Assembly: GCA_035287145.1 (NCBI GenBank)
Contig: DATEBX010000013.1
Coordinates: 1 to 32,174 of the forward strand
Direction: 5' to 3'
DNA length: 32,174 nt
DNA from: Patescibacteria group bacterium
GTDB lineage: Bacteria > Patescibacteriota > UBA1384
Shown piece after piece: positions 1,672 to 25,960 of this stretch. Numbering within the stretch: position 1 is the stretch's first letter; every line of letters begins with the position of its first letter. The position numbers and the translations under genes were made by a program. The notes under the pieces were generated by a model. The model was not told the DNA's origin and made no database searches. It saw nothing but the letters and a program-made list of their open reading frames with translations.

Positions 1672-3213
1672 ATGGCAAGCTATTATTACAATGTCTGCCT
1701 TAACCGCCCCGCGGCGCGGCTCAAAAGCGCTTATACGTACTCCTACGAAACCAAGATAAGTATTGGTACGCTCGTACAAGTACTTTTTCACGGCCGCCGC
1801 GAAACAGGCGTTATTATTAGCTCGCCTCCGAAACCCACTATTGCGCCTAGCCGTGTTCTAGCTCTCCAAAAGGTTCTCTCACCCCAGCCGGCTATCGCGC
1901 CCCGGGCTATCCGGCTGGCAGAGTATCTGGCTTGCTATTATCTTGCAAGCATCGGCGAAGTGATTTTTGCCATGCTGCCGGGTTCTGCATTGGCTAATAA
2001 GATGCCGCTGGCACTGGATTATTTTTCCGCCTCCCGCCCAAGCCAACCAGTCGTCATAACGGGCAATTTCAACGAAAGAATGACGGCTTATTTGCCGGCG
2101 GTGAATGCCGCCCTCGCCCGGGGCGGACAGATTCTCCATATTGCGCCCAATCGACGTTTGAGTAAGTATGTTTACACTTACTGGCAAAATATATTTTCCG
2201 CGGCGGCCGTGGTTGATACAAGCTCCATAAAATCAAATCCGGAGCAGCTTAATGCTTATCGGCAGATTGCCGAAGGGAGAATCAATATTGTCGTTGGGAC
2301 GCGCAAAACCATCTTTTCTCCGCTCAAACACTTGGCTCTTATTATAGTTGAGGAGCCGTCCAATTTTGGTTACTATAACGACCAAAAACCGGCCTACAAT
2401 TTGCGGGTGGTGGCGGAGACCATCAATGAGCTTTATCGCACCCCCATTCATTTCGGAATGGGTGTTTTGGACGAGGAGTCACTGTGGCGGGTCAAACACG
2501 GACACTGTAAGCTAAGGCGCGGACGCGCGTCCACCCAGCCGGAGGCGGTTTGGATGGAAGGGGATTACCGCCAGGAAATTGACCGCAGGACACAGCGGGC
2601 AAAATTGGTAGTAGTGCCTTTTGCCAAGGGCAAGTTAATGCAAGGAAACTTTGCGCCTGAAAAAATAGCTCAAGAAATAAAATCTTTGCCGGTGCAAATT
2701 GTAGCGGGCGGCGCGACTCCGCCCGACCTCACTCGCGCCGGCCCGCTGGCTCTTGTCGCCAGCGCTAAAATCGTTGATTATCCCGAGCTGATTTTCGAAG
2801 AAACCGTTATCCTCGCCGCCGACATTTGGCTGTCATTTCCTACCCCTCACGCCATTGGCAATTTCCTGCGCCTTTATTGGCGGCTGCGCGCGCAAACTAA
2901 AACTCGATTTATTATCCATAGCCGTCGTCCGTTGCCTCTTGTCCAAAAACTTATCCACCAGCCACCCGCCAAAGTATTAGTCGCGCTTATGAAGCAAAAC
3001 CACCAGCTGGATTTGCCGCCTTTCACGCACCGCTTGGTGGTGGATGCCCGCAAGCCGGCCGAGCTGTCTAACTTTGCCGCTAAGGCCTTTGGCCGGAGCG
3101 TGAGCGCCGACGGCGCGCTTTACGTCCCCCGCCGCCTCTGGCCCCTTGGCGCCGCCGCCGCCGACCGCCTCTACTCCCTCAGCCGCAAAATCACCATCGA
3201 CGCCCCCCGCTAA
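1672..3213 (+). CDS. priA: Primosomal protein N' (PriA)-like protein with degenerate helicase motifs
   Basis: PriA-like N-terminus (YTYSY...IGTLVQVLFHGRRETGVII) and colinear core (IVVGTRKTIFSPLKHLALIIVEE). Where PriA has G(S/T)GKT it reads ITGNFNERM, where PriA has DEEH it reads VEEP, and where PriA has SATP it reads GMGVL. No Cys-rich zinc region. Aligned by eye from memory of E. coli PriA. Confidence 0.7.
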   Translation: MASYYYNVCLNRPAARLKSAYTYSYETKISIGTLVQVLFHGRRETGVIISSPPKPTIAPSRVLALQKVLSPQPAIAPRAIRLAEYLACYYLASIGEVIFAMLPGSALANKMPLALDYFSASRPSQPVVITGNFNERMTAYLPAVNAALARGGQILHIAPNRRLSKYVYTYWQNIFSAAAVVDTSSIKSNPEQLNAYRQIAEGRINIVVGTRKTIFSPLKHLALIIVEEPSNFGYYNDQKPAYNLRVVAETINELYRTPIHFGMGVLDEESLWRVKHGHCKLRRGRASTQPEAVWMEGDYRQEIDRRTQRAKLVVVPFAKGKLMQGNFAPEKIAQEIKSLPVQIVAGGATPPDLTRAGPLALVASAKIVDYPELIFEETVILAADIWLSFPTPHAIGNFLRLYWRLRAQTKTRFIIHSRRPLPLVQKLIHQPPAKVLVALMKQNHQLDLPPFTHRLVVDARKPAELSNFAAKAFGRSVSADGALYVPRRLWPLGAAAADRLYSLSRKITIDAPR

Positions 3214-3220
3214 GAAACCA

Positions 3221-3285
3221 GGGAACCAGGGGACGGCAGGGAACCAGGGGACGGTTCTCTTTTACCCTGTACTTTCGGCTTTTTT
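3221..3285 (+). repeat. R-family repeat, copy R1 (tandem 18-nt units + 38-nt core)
   Basis: gggaaccaggggacggca (3221-3238), then gggaaccaggggacgg (3239-3254), running into the core ggggacggttctcttttaccctgtactttcggcttttt (3247-3284). The core is identical to 4299-4336 and contains the last codons and stop of the RAYT gene. Confidence 0.9.
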
Positions 3286-3915
3286 AAGTAAATTACGATT
3301 GATTTTTTGTTGCTCATTGTATCTTTGTCCCTTGCTACCCCAAGTATTCTTATGGAAAGTATCTTCTATCATCTGGCTCACTATCAGTTTTCGGTATTGC
3401 ACCTGGCGTTCTTTCGGAGTTTTGCCCAACGCATCGTATAAAAAATCCGGCGTAACTAATTTATTATCCTTACCTTTTGCATAAAAGCGATAGCTTGAAT
3501 ATTTATAATCTTCGGGTTTTTCAACTATACCGCGTCTTGTTGGATTGAGTTCAATATATTTACCGCATTGAGTGAAATAGGCATCTTTGCCGACCGGCTG
3601 GCTTTTGTACCGGTCTTGCCAGAAATGTCCCACCCAGTTATATAGCTGTCTATAATGATGGAAATACGCCAAATTAAGTCTTTTCATAAATAAAGAGAAA
3701 TCATTGGCTTTTCTGGTTTGAACCAGTAAATGAGTATGATTTGGCATTAAGCAGTAATGATAAAGGTCAAAGGGGTGCTCCTGCTTGTATTTTGTAACTA
3801 ATTCAAGAAAGTAATAATAGTCTTCGTTGGCTCTAAATACAACATTACGATTGTTACCCCTGGTCATGATGTGGTAAAAGCTGCGAGATAATAATAAGCG
3901 TGGGGGTCTTGGCAT
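3262..3915 (-). CDS. REP-associated tyrosine transposase (RAYT) / IS200-like Y1 HUH transposase
   Basis: N-terminus MPRPPR...SFYHIMTRGNNRNVVF, HUH motif LMPNHTHLLV, C-terminal Tyr region PEDYKYSSYRFY. 217 aa. Flanked by inverted R repeats. Confidence 0.85.
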   Translation of the reverse strand: MPRPPRLLLSRSFYHIMTRGNNRNVVFRANEDYYYFLELVTKYKQEHPFDLYHYCLMPNHTHLLVQTRKANDFSLFMKRLNLAYFHHYRQLYNWVGHFWQDRYKSQPVGKDAYFTQCGKYIELNPTRRGIVEKPEDYKYSSYRFYAKGKDNKLVTPDFLYDALGKTPKERQVQYRKLIVSQMIEDTFHKNTWGSKGQRYNEQQKINRNLLKKAESTG

Positions 3916-3921
3916 GATTTT

Positions 3922-3930
3922 ATATTATCA
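3922..3930 (-). promoter_or_regulatory. Extended -10 (TGATAATAT on the minus strand) for the RAYT gene
   Basis: The minus strand reads ...acgacgTGaTAATATaaaatcATG. Only 6 nt lie between the -10 and the ATG, and there is no Shine-Dalgarno sequence. This implies a near-leaderless mRNA. Confidence 0.35.
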
Positions 3931-3940
3931 CGTCGTAACG

Positions 3941-4004
3941 AAAAAGCCGAATTATCAGGTAAAAAGAGAACCGTCCCCTCTGCCGCTCCGTCCCCTCTGC
4001 CGCT
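3941..4004 (-). repeat. R-family repeat, copy R2 (inverted relative to R1)
   Basis: The reverse complement of 3941-3978 is ggggacggttctctttttacctgataattcggcttttt. It adjoins a perfect 17-nt x2 tandem, ccgtcccctctgccgct, at 3971-3987 and 3988-4004. Confidence 0.9.
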
Positions 4005-4266
4005 CTGCCGATGGCGGCTTCGTCGACGTGCCGTACTTCTATTTCGACGATGGCAAGGTCAAGTTCTGCACCGGCTGGGTCGCCGACCCGAGCGAGTGCT
4101 ATGGTGCCGCCTCCGGTTTCCTCCGCAGTAAACATCGACTCTTGCGGCATTGAGTTCTTGAATCTTTTGAAAAATCGATTCTCGAGTTCCCTACCGCGGA
4201 GCGGTCGCGACAAATTGGGCTACCCGCTTCCTTACGACGGATAGCCCTTTCTTTTAAACAGAAGGA

Positions 4267-4336
4267 GGGACCGGAAGGGGGACAGGAGGGACCGGAAGGG
4301 GGACGGTTCTCTTTTACCCTGTACTTTCGGCTTTTT
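4267..4336 (+). repeat. R-family repeat, copy R3 (tandem 21-nt units + 38-nt core)
   Basis: gggaccggaagggggacagga (4267-4287), then gggaccggaagggggacgg (4288-4306). The core at 4299-4336 is identical to 3247-3284. Confidence 0.9.
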
Positions 4337-4431
4337 GATGTTTATTTTTTGAGGACAATCAAACTTTCACTAAGATAAGAAACGTAGGCCACGACATATC
4401 GTGCGAATTTTGGCAGAGGCGTGTTAGCTGC

Positions 4432-4474
4432 GAGATTGCTTCCTCCACGATTTTATCGGGGCTCGCAATGACAC
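4432..4474 (-). repeat. C-family repeat, copy C3 (reverse orientation)
   Basis: The reverse complement reads gtgtcattgcgagccccgataaaatcgtggaggaagcaatctc, the same architecture as 13107-13160 and 24297-24337. Confidence 0.8.
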
Positions 4475-4496
4475 ATTTTAGCTATTAGCGCGTGAT

Positions 4497-4531
4497 ATTC
4501 GAGTGTCATCTGGGATTGTTTTATTCGAGTG
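4497..4531 (+). promoter_or_regulatory. Two ATTCGAGTG boxes upstream of secG (candidate operator)
   Basis: Exact 9-mers at 4497-4505 and 4523-4531. The same 9-mer recurs twice upstream of mreB. Confidence 0.3.
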
Positions 4532-4568
4532 CATTAGCGTGATTAGGCGCGTTTTTGCGCGCCTTCGC

Positions 4569-4596
4569 TTGACATAATTTGAGTTCCTGATAGAGT
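4569..4596 (+). promoter_or_regulatory. sigma70-type promoter of secG (TTGACA-16-TAGAGT)
   Basis: TTGACA at 4569-4574 and TAGAGT at 4591-4596. The ATG at 4607 is 10 nt downstream with no Shine-Dalgarno sequence. Confidence 0.5.
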
Positions 4597-4606
4597 ATGG
4601 CACTGT

Positions 4607-4831
4607 ATGGGACAAATACTCCAAATCATCGAATTAGTGCTGGCCATTGTCATAATTTTGTCCGTGCTACTGCAACAGCGCGGCTCGGGCATGGGTGGTG
4701 TTTTCGGCAGTGAATTTTCCGCCTACCACTCCCGCCGCGGCTTTGAAAAATTCCTCTATTATTTAACGATTGTGAGCGGTGTTCTCTTCTGCGCGACGGC
4801 TCTAGTTAGCATCTACTTGGCCACGCGATAA
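4607..4831 (+). CDS. secG: Preprotein translocase subunit SecG
   Basis: 74 aa with two TM segments. The LLQQRGSGMGGVFG motif is typical of SecG. Confidence 0.85.
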   Translation: MGQILQIIELVLAIVIILSVLLQQRGSGMGGVFGSEFSAYHSRRGFEKFLYYLTIVSGVLFCATALVSIYLATR

Positions 4832-9422: not shown

Positions 9423-9498
9423 GCACCCGTAGCTCAACGGTTAGAGCACTTGGTTTACATCCAAGGGGTTGTCTGTTCGAATCAGACCGGGTGCACCA
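9423..9498 (+). tRNA. tRNA-Val (anticodon TAC), CCA encoded
   Basis: Acceptor gcacccg/cgggtgc, D-arm gctc-aacggtta-gagc, anticodon stem cttgg/ccaag with loop ttTACat, T-arm gtctg-ttcgaat-cagac, then ACCA. Confidence 0.9.
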
Positions 9499-9592
9499 AG
9501 TAAAATTACTTCCTGCAAAACGAATTACATTCTGTTATTGCAGGAGCGTAACCACTTGGCGCAGCCATATAAGGAAGTAATTTTACGCAGTC
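9499..9592 (+). repeat. tRNA-3'-linked structured repeat T1 (candidate small RNA)
   Basis: Starts immediately after the CCA of tRNA-Val. Nested helices: gtaaaattacttcc (9500-9513) with ggaagtaattttac (9573-9586), cctgcaa with ttgcagg, and aacgaat-tac-attc(t)gtt. Direct repeat of 9863-9959. Confidence 0.75.
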
Positions 9593-9670
9593 GCGTGGCG
9601 AACGAAGTGAGTTTTACGCGACATTTCGTAACTTTGAGATTTGATTTTTGCATTTTGATTTATATGTATG

Positions 9671-9774
9671 TCTGAGTAGCTCAGTGGTATCCTCCTTCGT
9701 AAAATCTCTTGCAGTATTCAAATTATTGAAATCTGCAAATAGATTTTACTTCGGACGGACAGGGAGCAGAGGAC
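9671..9774 (+). pseudogene. tRNA-Phe 5'-half pseudo-copy interrupted by a 74-nt nested hairpin
   Basis: 9674-9689 (gagtagctcagtggta) and 9764-9774 (gagcagaggac) are identical to consecutive segments of tRNA-Phe (9792-9818). They are separated by a 74-nt insert (9690-9763). There is no anticodon loop, T-arm or 3' acceptor. Confidence 0.6.
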
Positions 9775-9787
9775 ACCAAAAGGATTT

Positions 9788-9862
9788 GCTGGAGTAGCTC
9801 AGTGGTAGAGCAGAGGACTGAAAATCCTCGTGTCGTGAGTTCGATTCTCACCTCCAGCACCA
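9788..9862 (+). tRNA. tRNA-Phe (anticodon GAA), CCA encoded
   Basis: Acceptor gctggag/ctccagc, D-arm gctc-agtggta-gagc, anticodon stem gagga/tcctc with loop ctGAAaa, T-arm gtgag-ttcgatt-ctcac, then ACCA. Confidence 0.9.
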
Positions 9863-9959
9863 AGTAAAATTACTTCCTGCAAAACGAACTACGTTCTGTT
9901 ATTGCAGGAGCGTAACCACTTGGCACAGCCACATAATAAGGAAGTAATTTTACGCAGTC
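9863..9959 (+). repeat. tRNA-3'-linked structured repeat T2 (candidate small RNA)
   Basis: Starts immediately after the CCA of tRNA-Phe. Same nested helices as T1. The innermost helix closes with C9889-G9893 where T1 has T9525-A9529. Confidence 0.75.
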
Positions 9960-10059
9960 CCGAGACGACGCTTCTTAAATAACAGGATGTAATCCGTTTT
10001 TAAGAAAGGAGTTTTTCGGGACAACACTTGAATCACACTCCCCATCCAACAATATCCCA

Positions 10060-13172: not shown

Positions 13173-13259
13173 GGCGCGGTGGTGGAATTGGTATACACGA
13201 AGGACTTAAAATTCTTTGGCCGCAAGGCCATGTGGGTTCGACTCCCACCCGCGCCACCA
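13173..13259 (+). tRNA. tRNA-Leu (anticodon TAA), CCA encoded
   Basis: Acceptor ggcgcgg/ccgcgcc, anticodon stem aagga/ttctt (one G-U pair) with loop ctTAAaa, long variable arm tggccgcaaggccat, T-arm gtggg-ttcgact-cccac, then ACCA. Confidence 0.85.
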
Positions 13260-13273
13260 TAAATCAACCCAAT

Positions 13274-13300
13274 CGCACCCCGTAGGTGTGTTTATGGTTT
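13274..13300 (+). repeat. H-family hairpin H5 (cgcacc-ccgta-ggtgtg + tttatggttt), probable tRNA terminator
   Basis: 6-bp stem including one G-U pair. Shares the CGTAGGTG motif and the T-rich ...GGTTT tail with H1 and H4. Confidence 0.55.
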
Positions 13301-13333: not shown

Positions 13334-13376
13334 CTTAACCTGTTAAAGTACACCTCGTAGGTGTCCTTTTTGGTTT
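13334..13376 (+). repeat. H-family repeat H1 (cttaacctgttaaagtacacctcgtaggtgtcctttttggtt)
   Basis: 13345-13375 is identical to 23002-23032, and 13334-13357 is identical to 14501-14524. Hairpin ACACCT-cgt-AGGTGT followed by CCTTTTT. Confidence 0.9.
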
Positions 13377-14500: not shown

Positions 14501-14570
14501 CTTAACCTGTTAAAGTACACCTCGCCCGCCTGCGGAAGCTTAATTTTAAGCAGTACGGGCAAGTAGGTGG
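14501..14570 (+). repeat. H-family repeat H2, hairpin loop interrupted by a 39-nt insert
   Basis: 14501-14524 equals the H1 5' half up to ...gtacacctcg. 14525-14563 is a 39-nt self-complementary insert (gcccg/cgggc, gcttaa/ttaagc). The repeat resumes at taggtgg (14564-14570). Confidence 0.75.
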
Positions 14571-22984: not shown

Positions 22985-23001
22985 AGTAGAATGAACCCGC
23001 A

Positions 23002-23032
23002 AAAGTACACCTCGTAGGTGTCCTTTTTGGTT
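23002..23032 (+). repeat. H-family repeat H4
   Basis: aaagtacacctcgtaggtgtcctttttggtt is identical to 13345-13375. Confidence 0.9.
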
Positions 23033-24473: not shown

Positions 24474-24560
24474 CTGGTTGTTCAGATGTCCCTTGATAAC
24501 CAGGTCCCGCTTGGCGGGACATAGATGCTGGCGAGCATATACGCAAGGAGGCGACAGCTG

Positions 24561-25481
24561 ATGACCAGTCAGACTGCGTCAAAGGTAACAGATAGACAGA
24601 TACTGGAAATGAAGAGGCAGTTGGAGGTTGTGGCCTACCGCTACCTCTCCCTCGAGAGTGCACAGATGATCATCGAGCGGGGCGACGTATTCCAGTCCCG
24701 GCTTGGCGATCTCTTACGCGAACTCGGTGGCATGTTCCCGAATCAGTACGAGAGTGAGCGCGTTGACCGGACCCTCGACAACCCCGCGGGCTGGTCAGTT
24801 CCGTCCTTCGACGAACAGCGTGCGCGCACCGCCAAACTGTTCCCCGATCTGGTTTTGCCCGAGACCCCCACACGGGACATTGTTGTCCCCAACGGTTGGG
24901 ACGGCGTCTGGTGGTTCCCGCCTAAGATTGCGGCCATCGGCCGCATCTGCGGAGTAGCCGACTGCTACATCGCGGACTATGGCACAGTCGTGAAGCACCT
25001 GCTCACCCTCATCAAGAAGCAGCGTGCCTTCATCAACTACCGCACCCTAAACGGCGACCAACTGACGGCGGAGTACGTCCGCATCAATGAGAACGTGCGC
25101 GGCCGCATCCAGATGCTGGAGGCCGCCACCGGCGGCGACTTCCTGCCGCCAATGCCGATAACATTCGGCCAATTCTACGGGGGCTTCTCGCCCCGCAATG
25201 CCCGCGAAACGGCCATCCGTCGGCAGGAGCTACCGTTCTGCACTGCCCAGGTCGGCTCGCTGCTGGCCGTCATGCCTGAACGCCTCGCCGCTCACGACCT
25301 CTGGATTGATATCCCCGCCGATGAGTACCACTGGGGCGGTGACAACCTCTGGGCGCACTCGCTGTATTTCTACTTCGGTGACGGCGGGTTGATGATGTTC
25401 GATTCCGGTGGTGCTGCCGATGCCGCTGGCCGCTGTGGCTCGGCTGTCGGTCTCCCGGGAGTGTCGGAGTTCGCCTCCTAG
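24561..25481 (+). CDS. Hypothetical protein, 306 aa, no recognisable family; GC3-rich foreign-looking gene between mreB and mreC
   Basis: AAGGAGG at 24545-24551, then ATG at 24561 (the ORF is open from 24525). Coherent GC3 codon bias (TTC, AAG, GAC, TAC). Own promoter and terminator. Confidence 0.7.
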   Translation: MTSQTASKVTDRQILEMKRQLEVVAYRYLSLESAQMIIERGDVFQSRLGDLLRELGGMFPNQYESERVDRTLDNPAGWSVPSFDEQRARTAKLFPDLVLPETPTRDIVVPNGWDGVWWFPPKIAAIGRICGVADCYIADYGTVVKHLLTLIKKQRAFINYRTLNGDQLTAEYVRINENVRGRIQMLEAATGGDFLPPMPITFGQFYGGFSPRNARETAIRRQELPFCTAQVGSLLAVMPERLAAHDLWIDIPADEYHWGGDNLWAHSLYFYFGDGGLMMFDSGGAADAAGRCGSAVGLPGVSEFAS

Positions 25482-25620: not shown

Positions 25621-25658
25621 GGGGACGGTTCTCTTTTACCCTTAACATTCGGCTTTTT
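25621..25658 (+). repeat. R-family repeat, solo copy R4
   Basis: ggggacggttctcttttacccttaacattcggcttttt. The first 22 nt are identical to R1 and R3. No tandem units. Confidence 0.85.
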
Positions 25659-25686
25659 GAATTAAACTCCACACAGCTTACATATT

Positions 25687-25786
25687 CACCCCACCAACCC
25701 CGCCTCGACCGACTTCGAGTCGGGCGGGCTCCCCCTCTTAGTAAGCCTGTCCCGAGTCACACCGAGGGAGGGGAGCTGGTGGGGTG
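25687..25786 (+). other. About 100-nt three-helix structured element (candidate ncRNA or structured repeat)
   Basis: Closing helix caccccacca (25687-25696) with tggtggggtg (25777-25786), 10 bp perfect. Internal helices cccgcc(tcga)/(tcga..)ggcggg and gctccccctc/gagggaggggagc. Confidence 0.4.
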
Positions 25787-25960
25787 GTATTCGCCTGCAG
25801 GATACTTTGTATGCCCAAACTCTAAAATCTGAACCTGCAAATTGCACACTTCGGAAGTGTGCAGAGCGGTTTACCTATTCTCGTGTTCTATTCGAGCGTA
25901 ATAAGCCCGACAGAACACGGCTCTTTATCGAGGCGGGCCGCGCCCACGATCGTAACCGCT

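Follow-up and report, generated by a model that had tools for sequence, protein, structure and literature searches.

A TIRtron in a Patescibacteria genome and tandem duplications across the outer ends of its terminal repeats

A 32,174-nucleotide stretch of DNA from a Patescibacteria group bacterium (GenBank assembly GCA_035287145.1, contig DATEBX010000013.1, positions 1 to 32,174; hereafter the window) carries a TIRtron, i.e., a gene for a Y1/HUH enzyme of the TIRYT type, also classed as a Group 1 REP-associated tyrosine transposase (RAYT; REP, repetitive extragenic palindromic sequence) or TnpAY1 subclass 2.1, lying within two 38-nt terminal inverted repeats (TIRs). The locus adds the Patescibacteria as a host group to the TIRtron class. 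At three of the four repeat copies in the window a short tandem duplication spans the junction between the outer end of the repeat and its flank. Such junction duplications are a general feature of the TIRYT class, occurring far above chance; we found no mention of them in the TIRYT papers or in literature text searches, and they are a previously undescribed part of TIRtron biology. For the system as a whole we favor, on balance, an account in which a TIRtron with a resident gene acquires these duplications by nicking at the boundary of a terminal octamer and out-of-register rejoining.

Results

The Locus and Its Four Repeats

The 38-nt core (GGGGACGGTTCTCTTTTACCCTGTACTTTCGGCTTTTT) is identical at 3247-3284 and 4299-4336, both on the plus strand. 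A further plus-strand copy at 25621-25658 has 3 mismatches (0 such matches being expected in shuffled sequence), and an inverted, diverged copy at 3941-3978 on the minus strand is 85% complementary to the left arm, with one extra T. These four copies had been listed in a first-pass annotation made from the letters of the window, and a search with a profile built from 59 related cores recovered them at the same positions, with exactly four and no others in the 32 kb. The TIR arms are 38-39 nt long, with 656 nt between them, and the sole open reading frame (ORF) enclosed by the copies at 3247 and 3941 is the HUH/Y1 gene of 217 codons (3262-3915, minus strand), as the annotation had said. It had also placed the last seven codons of the gene within the left copy; the 23 nt shared by the two comprise the stop codon, six full codons and only 2 nt of the seventh. 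The gene lies between priA (1672-3213) and secG (4607-4831) and forms an island of 36%-40% GC (gene, about 38%) in a genome of 50%-60% (about 52%). The features of the locus, some of which are described by reference to a related contig designated L072, are as follows.

3247-3284, plus strand: left TIR, at the 3' end of the gene, with the stop and last 6-7 codons of the gene inside it
3262-3915, minus strand: TIRYT gene, Y1/HUH, 217 aa, with NHTH, WQ, YIELNP and SS motifs
3941-3978, minus strand: right TIR, beyond the 5' end of the gene, a diverged copy with its inner end 25 nt upstream of the ATG
3219-3254, plus strand: 18-nt x2 junction duplication (Tandem Repeats Finder), not in L072
3971-4005, minus strand: 17-nt x2 junction duplication (Tandem Repeats Finder), the L072 counterpart array being decayed
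4010-4262, no strand assigned: segment of about 250 nt without counterpart in L072, holding an ORF remnant (reading frame 3980-4153)
4263-4306, plus strand: 21-nt x2 junction duplication (Tandem Repeats Finder), exact up to TIR position 6
4299-4336, plus strand: third TIR, a solo copy with the same sequence as the left TIR; the breakpoint where homology to L072 restarts falls exactly at its inner end
25621-25658, plus strand: solo TIR with 3 mismatches, intergenic, 139 nt downstream of ORF 24525-25481, with no junction duplication

As these solo copies show, the core is not confined to the transposase gene, which was another of the points raised by the annotation. The solo site at 25621 was also found in a JGI contig (L073). 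The repeats matched no Rfam family, and promoter and terminator consensus scans of 3150-4650 gave nothing beyond chance. We rejected an alternative left flank seen in JGI contig L010/L075 (2517-2600), where the 3' end of priA is joined to unrelated genes (dCache, ABC substrate-binding); the join falls within a GCC-rich stretch of priA and most likely reflects a chimeric assembly, not an alternative insertion site.

The Gene Product Is a TIRYT, i.e., a Group 1 RAYT

The 217-residue protein matches Pfam Y1_Tnp with E=5e-18 (65.8 bits; cut-off 23). It contains an HUH motif of the form NHTH (H60, H62), WQ at 99-100, the catalytic Tyr120 within YIELNP, and SS at 140-141. H60, H62, W99, Q100 and Y120-I-E-L-N-P125 are invariant in 33 homologues, so that the profile check proposed in the first-pass annotation, including conservation of the HUH and Tyr residues, gave a positive answer. 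The middle residue of the HUH motif, T in the window protein, is T, V, I or L among close homologues. In the tail of about 85 aa at the C terminus, S140 is near-invariant, S141 is invariant, and W192, G193 and Q197 are conserved; no helix-turn-helix (HTH) family of Pfam matched this tail, even at E up to 10. The sole relative of solved structure is E. coli TnpAREP (4er8, E=6.5e-8), with which the HUH motif and catalytic Tyr align. The protein narrowly misses the NCBIfam model REP_Tyr_transpos (NF047646; 76.1 bits, cut-off 80) and falls well below that for transpos_IS200 (NF033573; 21.8, cut-off 55). There are at least 900 related protein clusters at E below 1e-20, and those with a named source are labeled "transposase" from Patescibacteria. 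Many homologues (P0004-P0123) lie on contigs of 0.8-1.3 kb, about the length of one TIRtron; evidently, assemblers often break at TIRtron repeats.

RAYT-like genes with long terminal inverted repeats instead of REPs were described by Di Nocera, De Gregorio & Rocco (2013), who named them TIRYTs and the elements TIRtrons; their repeats share the terminal motif GGGGWSAS, and some families are dispersed singly, as dimers or in groups (PMC3733652). Quentin et al. (2018) equated TIRYTs with TnpAY1 subclass 2.1 and with Group 1 of Bertels, and listed for the subclass NHVH or NH[YF]H, W[EQ], an SS-containing tail, absence of REPs and a median length of 238 aa (PMC6006769). The Tyr motif of the subclass is YIELNP or Y[IV]HLNP, the Class 2 form being Y---NP (PMC6006769, Table 1), and its tail combines the SS motif with an HTH-like domain similar to Bac_DnaA_C, HTH_23 or HTH_28 (PMC6006769). 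In the window protein YIELNP and WQ are exact and NHTH is a minor departure, and the outer end of the repeat, GGGGACGG, agrees with GGGGWSAS at 7 of 8 positions, with G instead of A at position 7. By these motifs the RAYT group placement called for in the annotation comes out as Group 1/subclass 2.1.

When both strands of the four copies were folded as single-stranded DNA, the z scores ranged from -1.1 to +1.2, no better than shuffled sequence, and a hairpin in the core was rejected for all four. We also rejected compensating changes between the upstream flank and an ACC(C)TG segment, which were inconsistent among 71 sites inspected by eye. Because neither a hairpin nor a GTAG foot was found, the label is TIRtron rather than REPtron. 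The "REPtron-like" description in the annotation was thus right about inverted repeats around a Y1 gene but needs refining, since the repeats are not palindromic REPs and the locus belongs to the described TIRYT/TIRtron class (PMC3733652, PMC6006769); likewise, the folding that it had suggested spoke for a TIR architecture and against REP hairpins.

The pairing of enzyme and repeat, also proposed in the annotation, recurs elsewhere: in at least 10 other genomes a 58%-71% identical gene is framed by the same core at matching distances. In 10 genomes about 63 nt separate the outer end of the repeat from the ATG downstream of it, and the opposite copy overlaps the stop codon. The repeat is a candidate DNA substrate of the TIRYT enzyme, its outermost octamer GGGGACGG probably being the counterpart of the GGGGWSAS motif shared by the class. 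Among annotated proteins the nearest homologues, which are encoded on plasmids, are 24%-39% identical and are also framed by inverted repeats, with ends that are the hallmark of TIRYTs (PMC3733652). These end in GGGGACAG in P. aeruginosa, in GGGGTCAG in Iodobacter, Rhodospirillum, Sporomusa and Skermanella, and in GGGTCAG in Legionella and Pseudoalteromonas; the repeat of an Acetoanaerobium homologue ends in GGGACGGTTCT, which is of the window type.

A scan of one genome per species found 56 loci carrying the first 20-21 nt of the repeat. The hosts include Saccharibacteria, Berkelbacteria, Nealsonbacteria, Gottesmanbacteria and other Patescibacteria and, beyond that group, Lachnospiraceae and other Clostridia, one Aerophobetes genome and one spirochaete genome. 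The Patescibacteria consensus is GGGGACGGTTCTCTTTTaaCCtgannaTTngnnntttt, and the first 17 nt are identical in several phyla of the candidate phyla radiation (CPR) and in Clostridia. Only the Firmicutes variant forms a real hairpin, in which a 13-mer of the repeat occupies the loop of an 8-bp stem (GGTGAAA...TTTCACC, z=-3.5). Related metagenome-assembled genomes (MAGs) hold at least 4-14 exact-seed copies each, and a JGI scan with the lineage-specific pattern matched 6 contigs. Carriage by phage was rejected, the single viral-contig match to the 17-mer looking like chance.

Tandem Duplications Span the Repeat Junctions in the Window

Tandem Repeats Finder reported an 18-nt unit at 3219-3254 (2.0 copies), a 17-nt unit at 3971-4005 (2.1 copies) and a 21-nt unit at 4263-4304 (2.0 copies), each at 100%, the last extending to 4306 with one G-to-A mismatch. 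Each unit joins flanking sequence to the first 8 nt of the adjoining TIR: 10 nt from the priA side to GGGGACGG of the left TIR in the 18-nt unit, 9 nt to the right TIR in the 17-nt unit, and 13 nt to the third TIR in the 21-nt unit. In all three duplications the repeat-derived part is exactly GGGGACGG, a single substitution at 4305 having come later. The annotation had reported two-unit duplications of 18, 21 and 17 nt at these loci; they are real and perfect, although its coordinates were off by 2-4 nt, and its statement that every unit regenerates the repeat end holds except for the upstream unit at 4267-4306, where GGGGACAG stands instead of GGGGACGG (A at TIR position 7). Looser, nested arrays of period 8 occur at 3216-3249 and 3978-4010.

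The arrays are present unchanged in 10 independently assembled metagenome contigs, which excludes assembly error, and they are invariant among these 10 metagenome samples of the window strain; 9 samples of another strain gave the same picture. In L072, the 18-nt duplication is absent and the right-hand array has decayed.

Junction Duplications Are a General Feature of the Class

We pooled the window with loci fetched from other genomes and metagenomes. In the first set, of 101 sites, 25 (25%) had a second copy of the 9-mer spanning the junction no more than 45 nt upstream; the controls gave 2.2% (random positions) and 1.4% (other GGGG junctions). Exact tandem duplications with periods of 5-40 were then mapped at 110 unique repeat ends, identical contexts having been removed. 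Their inner borders fell at +1 (11 events) and at +5 to +8 (16 events); positions +9 to +15 had no events and +16 had one, over a background of about 0.2 events per position. Carriers made up 13/30 TIRtron ends and 15/66 solo copies of the Patescibacteria (CPR) type, and none of 14 hairpin-type copies from Firmicutes. Among 16 well-defined duplications, the microhomology at the borders was 0 nt in nine, 1 nt in five and 2 nt in one, which is about the chance level. Many upstream copies retain just 1-5 repeat bases, and no sequence rule was apparent at the outer, flank-side border in the listed events.

The same kind of duplication occurs at TIRtrons with unrelated repeats. In P. aeruginosa the unit gaataaaGGGGACA is followed by aagaataaaGGGGACAG..., and in Legionella cactctggaGGGTC is followed by cactctggaGGGTCAGgcc...; in Skermanella cacgcaaatGGGGTCAG is followed by a 19-nt partial copy and then by the full repeat. 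Pseudoalteromonas and Acetoanaerobium TIRtrons show it as well. The annotation had regarded the duplications as specific to the locus; they proved real and not peculiar to it, being general in the enzyme class.

Two further arrays were seen beside repeat ends elsewhere. In a Saccharibacteria MAG (ERP125453_co1_446; L037 40-135, L066 400-450) a 23-nt unit, aggcgatGGGGACGGTTCTCTTT, is repeated four times in tandem and consists of flank plus the first 16 repeat bases. A 52% identical homologue at 4660-4800 of contig L011 has another repeat end, GGGGACGCTCCCC, and in its 3' flank a multi-copy stutter (gagcaaaggga/gcaaagggag) leads into that end.

How the Duplications May Arise

HUH enzymes form a 5'-phosphotyrosine link and release a free 3'-OH, as restated for TnpAREP (PMC8266576). 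The sharp inner border at the octamer, together with the lack of microhomology and the recurrence on unrelated repeats, argues for a break followed by ligation and not for slippage. The data show what the gene is, how its repeats are arranged, what is conserved, how long the gene has been resident and where the duplication borders fall; we infer that the enzyme makes the nick, which strand it nicks, and that an extend-and-rejoin step follows. The TIRYT would nick at or just inside the octamer boundary, most economically on the complementary strand (5'-...GAGAA^CCGTCCCC-flank), with the catalytic Tyr120 becoming joined to the flank-side 5' phosphate. The free 3'-OH would then be extended outward for 5-25 nt by strand displacement, or an out-of-register 3'-OH would be used, after which the displaced 5' end would be rejoined by the TIRYT. 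The product predicted after replication would be [flank+8 nt][flank+8 nt]TTCTC..., the arrangement observed, and repeated rounds with later decay could yield the nested arrays. A polymerase-free variant would give the same product by strand exchange between two molecules, the cut falling at the octamer boundary in the first and at a fortuitous flank site in the second. We put forward only tentatively the idea that the duplications are an in vivo record of an octamer-boundary nick, a short outward 3'-OH extension and rejoining, which would be a reaction undescribed for Y1 relatives. The annotation had guessed at a footprint of cleavage and rejoining; the border statistics favor that guess, which would still be an interpretation of them.

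Several observations weigh against this proposal. One fixed nick site leaves the +1 mode, the spread from +5 to +8 and the units at +16 to +19 unexplained. In a clostridial locus (L092) the duplication reaches 1-2 nt beyond the octamer, and longer, rarer units ending at +16 to +19 occur in L037, L076 and L090; the latter suggest a second preferred border. Of all repeat ends, 57%-77% have no duplication, and the events are rare, as there was no array variation among 10 samples of one strain. The strand is assigned solely from the side that is duplicated, the repeat copy count covers 32 kb of the genome, and the RAYTs assayed biochemically belong to Groups 2 and 3 only (PMC8266576).

The main rival, which we regard as unlikely but by no means negligible, is that the host replisome, coming into the repeat from its flank, stalls against a tightly bound TIRYT or another repeat-binding protein, and that the nascent end slips or switches template, duplicating the flank together with the repeat bases already copied. 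A border spread over +1 and +5 to +8 resembles the edge of a footprint more than a single scissile bond; the nested, decaying arrays of L074, L041 and L052 look like stutter; and arrays fixed within populations fit rare replication errors. Slippage or template switching normally needs some microhomology, however, and 9/16 duplications have 0 nt at their borders. In addition, the borders match the class octamer in unrelated repeats (GGGGTCAG, GGGTC, GGGGACA), and the hairpin-type copies of the motif in Firmicutes carry none (0/14). Replisome stalling thus explains the border spread better than nicking and rejoining does, but not the missing microhomology.

The Gene Appears to Be a Long-Standing Resident

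In L072 (88%-95% nucleotide identity) the TIRYT gene is at the same site and is 94.8% identical, with 28 synonymous and 5 non-synonymous codon differences. In the more distant L069 it also directly follows priA. Protein identities to L069 are 71% for the TIRYT, 78% for Obg, 73% for SBP, 82% for SecG and 41% for PriA; as the TIRYT value resembles those of its neighbors, the gene has diverged in step with them. The gene has about 38% GC in the window, L072 and L069, within hosts of 50%-52%, and a low GC common to all three relatives is a standing property that does not point to recent transfer. The window has one copy of the gene, and another family member, P0070, was found at a single locus in 24/24 contigs read. 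No such gene is present in L067 (PriA 84% identical to the L069 protein), which has an empty site, GGGGACTGTTCTTTAG, compared with a filled site of GGGGACGGTTCTC...gatcGTTCTTTAG. The empty site is probably best explained by a deletion between two GTTCT pentamers, although an insertion beside a repeat-end-like target may account for the difference between L067 and L069. Judged from these comparisons, the gene is a long-resident, vertically inherited and selectively maintained one at the 3' end of priA, and not a recent insertion sequence (IS).

These data bear directly on an explanation that we consider improbable, namely that the locus is an ordinary autonomous IS which arrived recently by horizontal transfer and is still mobile as a unit, the solo repeats being decayed or one-ended copies. 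The architecture is IS-like, and among the RAYT groups Group 1 comes closest to an IS (Bertels et al., 2017, PMC5581495); the gene is at 38% GC in a 52% genome, it is present in L069 and absent from L067 despite the 84% identical PriA, and many homologues sit on contigs of about 1 kb, like repeats in assemblies. Set against this are the same locus in three lineages with a divergence like that of the neighbors and purifying selection, the single copy in the window and the one locus of P0070 in 24 contigs, the low GC of all three relatives, and an empty site explained by the GTTCT deletion.

It is very improbable that the tandem units are selected, iteron-like binding sites whose extra GGGGAC motifs, 8-10 nt apart, recruit several enzyme molecules: nested arrays of period 8 to 10 do lie beside all three window copies, and HUH Rep origins are known to pair iterons with a nick site, but the duplicated unit always contains locus-specific flank, many upstream copies hold only 1-5 repeat bases, most repeat ends have no array, and arrays differ or decay between close relatives.

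The Third Repeat Lies at a Replacement Breakpoint

Between the right repeat and secG, L072 has 3 kb with an rSAM-like gene, a DUF6504 gene and a Y-family-polymerase-like IMS gene, and IMS and DUF6504 also lie between the gene site and secG in L069 and L067. The window instead has about 290 bp of unrelated DNA followed by the repeat at 4299-4336, and homology to L072 restarts at 4337 (GATGTTTATT), the base after the inner end of that repeat. No IMS or DUF6504 remnants were found in 3980-4298 by tblastn. An ORF remnant at 3980-4153 on the plus strand resembles the C terminus of ORF 24525-25481 (43% over 30 aa; pairwise E=4e-4), a weak match that serves as a lead only. The two share the C-terminal motif YFYF(D/G)DG...AD...G(A/S)A.G, and each is followed, at a distance of 139-150 nt, by a solo repeat in the same orientation. 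ORF 24525-25481 (318 aa) has no Pfam or NCBIfam match. As circumstantial evidence, the arrangement suggests that the third repeat either moved together with the DNA upstream of it or brought about the replacement and, more generally, that the repeats can mark rearrangement breakpoints.

In the relatives L069 (3611-4885) and L072 (4005-5523), the gene adjoins IMS and DUF6504, an imuB-like cassette that has been lost from the window. The last 8 codons and stop of the L069 IMS ORF are encoded by the inverted repeat.

Other Features

Directly downstream of the solo repeat at 25621, the plus strand of 25655-25900 is GC-rich and folds into long nested helices (-90.9 kcal/mol, z=-4.5), with 0/200 shuffles as stable; a comparison with Rfam gave no match, even at E up to 1. 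From this predicted fold, it may be an unannotated structured RNA.

A second, unrelated family of short repeats (AACCTGTTAAAGTACACCTCGTAGGTGTCCTTTTTGGTT) occurs at 13262-13300, 13337-13375, 14504-14542 and 22994-23032. Its members consist of a small hairpin (ACACCT...AGGTGT) followed by a T-run, resembling a terminator, and two of the four lie beside the tRNA-Leu at 13173. A direct repeat of about 135 nt, 87%-91% identical, is found at 9468-9601 and 9832-9968; it begins inside the 3' parts of tRNA-Val (9423-9498) and tRNA-Phe (9788-9862) and extends downstream. JGI contig L071 matches 9688-9750 at 87%.

In the rumen Lachnospiraceae MAG RGIG8364 a REP-like hairpin unit, GGTGAAAnGGGGACGGTTCTCnTTTCACC, is present at least 12 times, on contigs L015, L016, L020, L025, L036, L046, L053, L057, L063 and L065, often as perfect 60-nt palindromic dimers or head-to-tail pairs. 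The fetched flanks of these units contained no Y1 gene.

Discussion

No RAYT group is larger or more widespread than Group 1, the TIRYTs. The survey points to a rule that crosses phyla, in which duplications of the repeat end stop at the conserved terminal octamer. If this is true, sequence comparison alone would mark the cleavage site of the whole TIRYT/Group 1 class, and the duplication borders would predict both the scissile position and the strand, which can be tested by a published assay of cleavage and strand transfer. The duplications may also constitute evidence, at the level of sequence, that "domesticated" enzymes act in vivo on their own repeats. If an outward-directed reaction of this kind ran further, it could copy flanking DNA and remodel the genome, and such remodeling would explain why a third repeat (4299) and 290 bp of foreign flank stand at the breakpoint of a 3-kb replacement. 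For annotators, the duplication signature helps in spotting TIRtron ends, and contig breaks at TIRtron repeats can hide such loci from binned genomes.

The closest known systems are the published TIRtrons. Like these, the window locus combines a Y1/HUH gene of about 210-240 aa, bearing YIELNP, WQ, an SS tail motif and NHxH, with long non-palindromic TIRs at fixed distances whose outer ends fit GGGGWSAS. Low-copy, dispersed solo repeats accompany the gene in both, and systems of this type are present in Clostridia and many other phyla. The window differs in its host, which is Patescibacteria-like (CPR) and outside the published surveys, and in the T at the middle of the HUH motif, compared with V, Y or F for the subclass.

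With REPtrons (E. coli Group 2; Pseudomonas and Stenotrophomonas Group 3; REP/BIME or REPIN), the locus shares a single-copy, vertically inherited Y1 gene with conserved HUH and Tyr residues, framed by a short repeat in inverted orientation, further copies of which are scattered between genes. Unlike REPs, however, the window repeats have no stable hairpin (z near 0) and no 5' GT[AG]G foot. REPs typically reach tens to hundreds of copies per genome, whereas the count for the window repeat is 4 in 32 kb. REPs are cleaved at CT or CA dinucleotides next to a hairpin (PMC8266576), a structure absent from the window repeat, and the window protein scores under the curated cut-off for REP-associated tyrosine transposases (76.1 versus 80).

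The TnpA proteins of the IS200/IS605 family (IS608, ISDra2) have in common with the window protein the HUH/Y1 fold, the chemistry of single-stranded DNA cleavage with a 5'-phosphotyrosine link and a free 3'-OH, cleavage at element ends, and the lack of a classical target-site duplication. IS200 transposases, however, are of about 150 aa with Y---Q, and the elements are multi-copy, the copies being near-identical, with subterminal hairpins and no TIRs, whereas the window protein has Y---NP, its element has TIRs, and there is a single copy of the gene.

By analogy, the proposed reaction recalls the rolling-circle Rep proteins (pT181 RepC, geminivirus Rep), initiators that nick, over-replicate to a limited extent and rejoin: there, an HUH nick is followed by 3'-OH extension past the nick and religation by the bound enzyme. 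The Firmicutes 13-mer in its hairpin loop is also like Rep nick sites. The analogy stops at the replicon, which the window system lacks, and at the proteins, which lie outside the Rep family.

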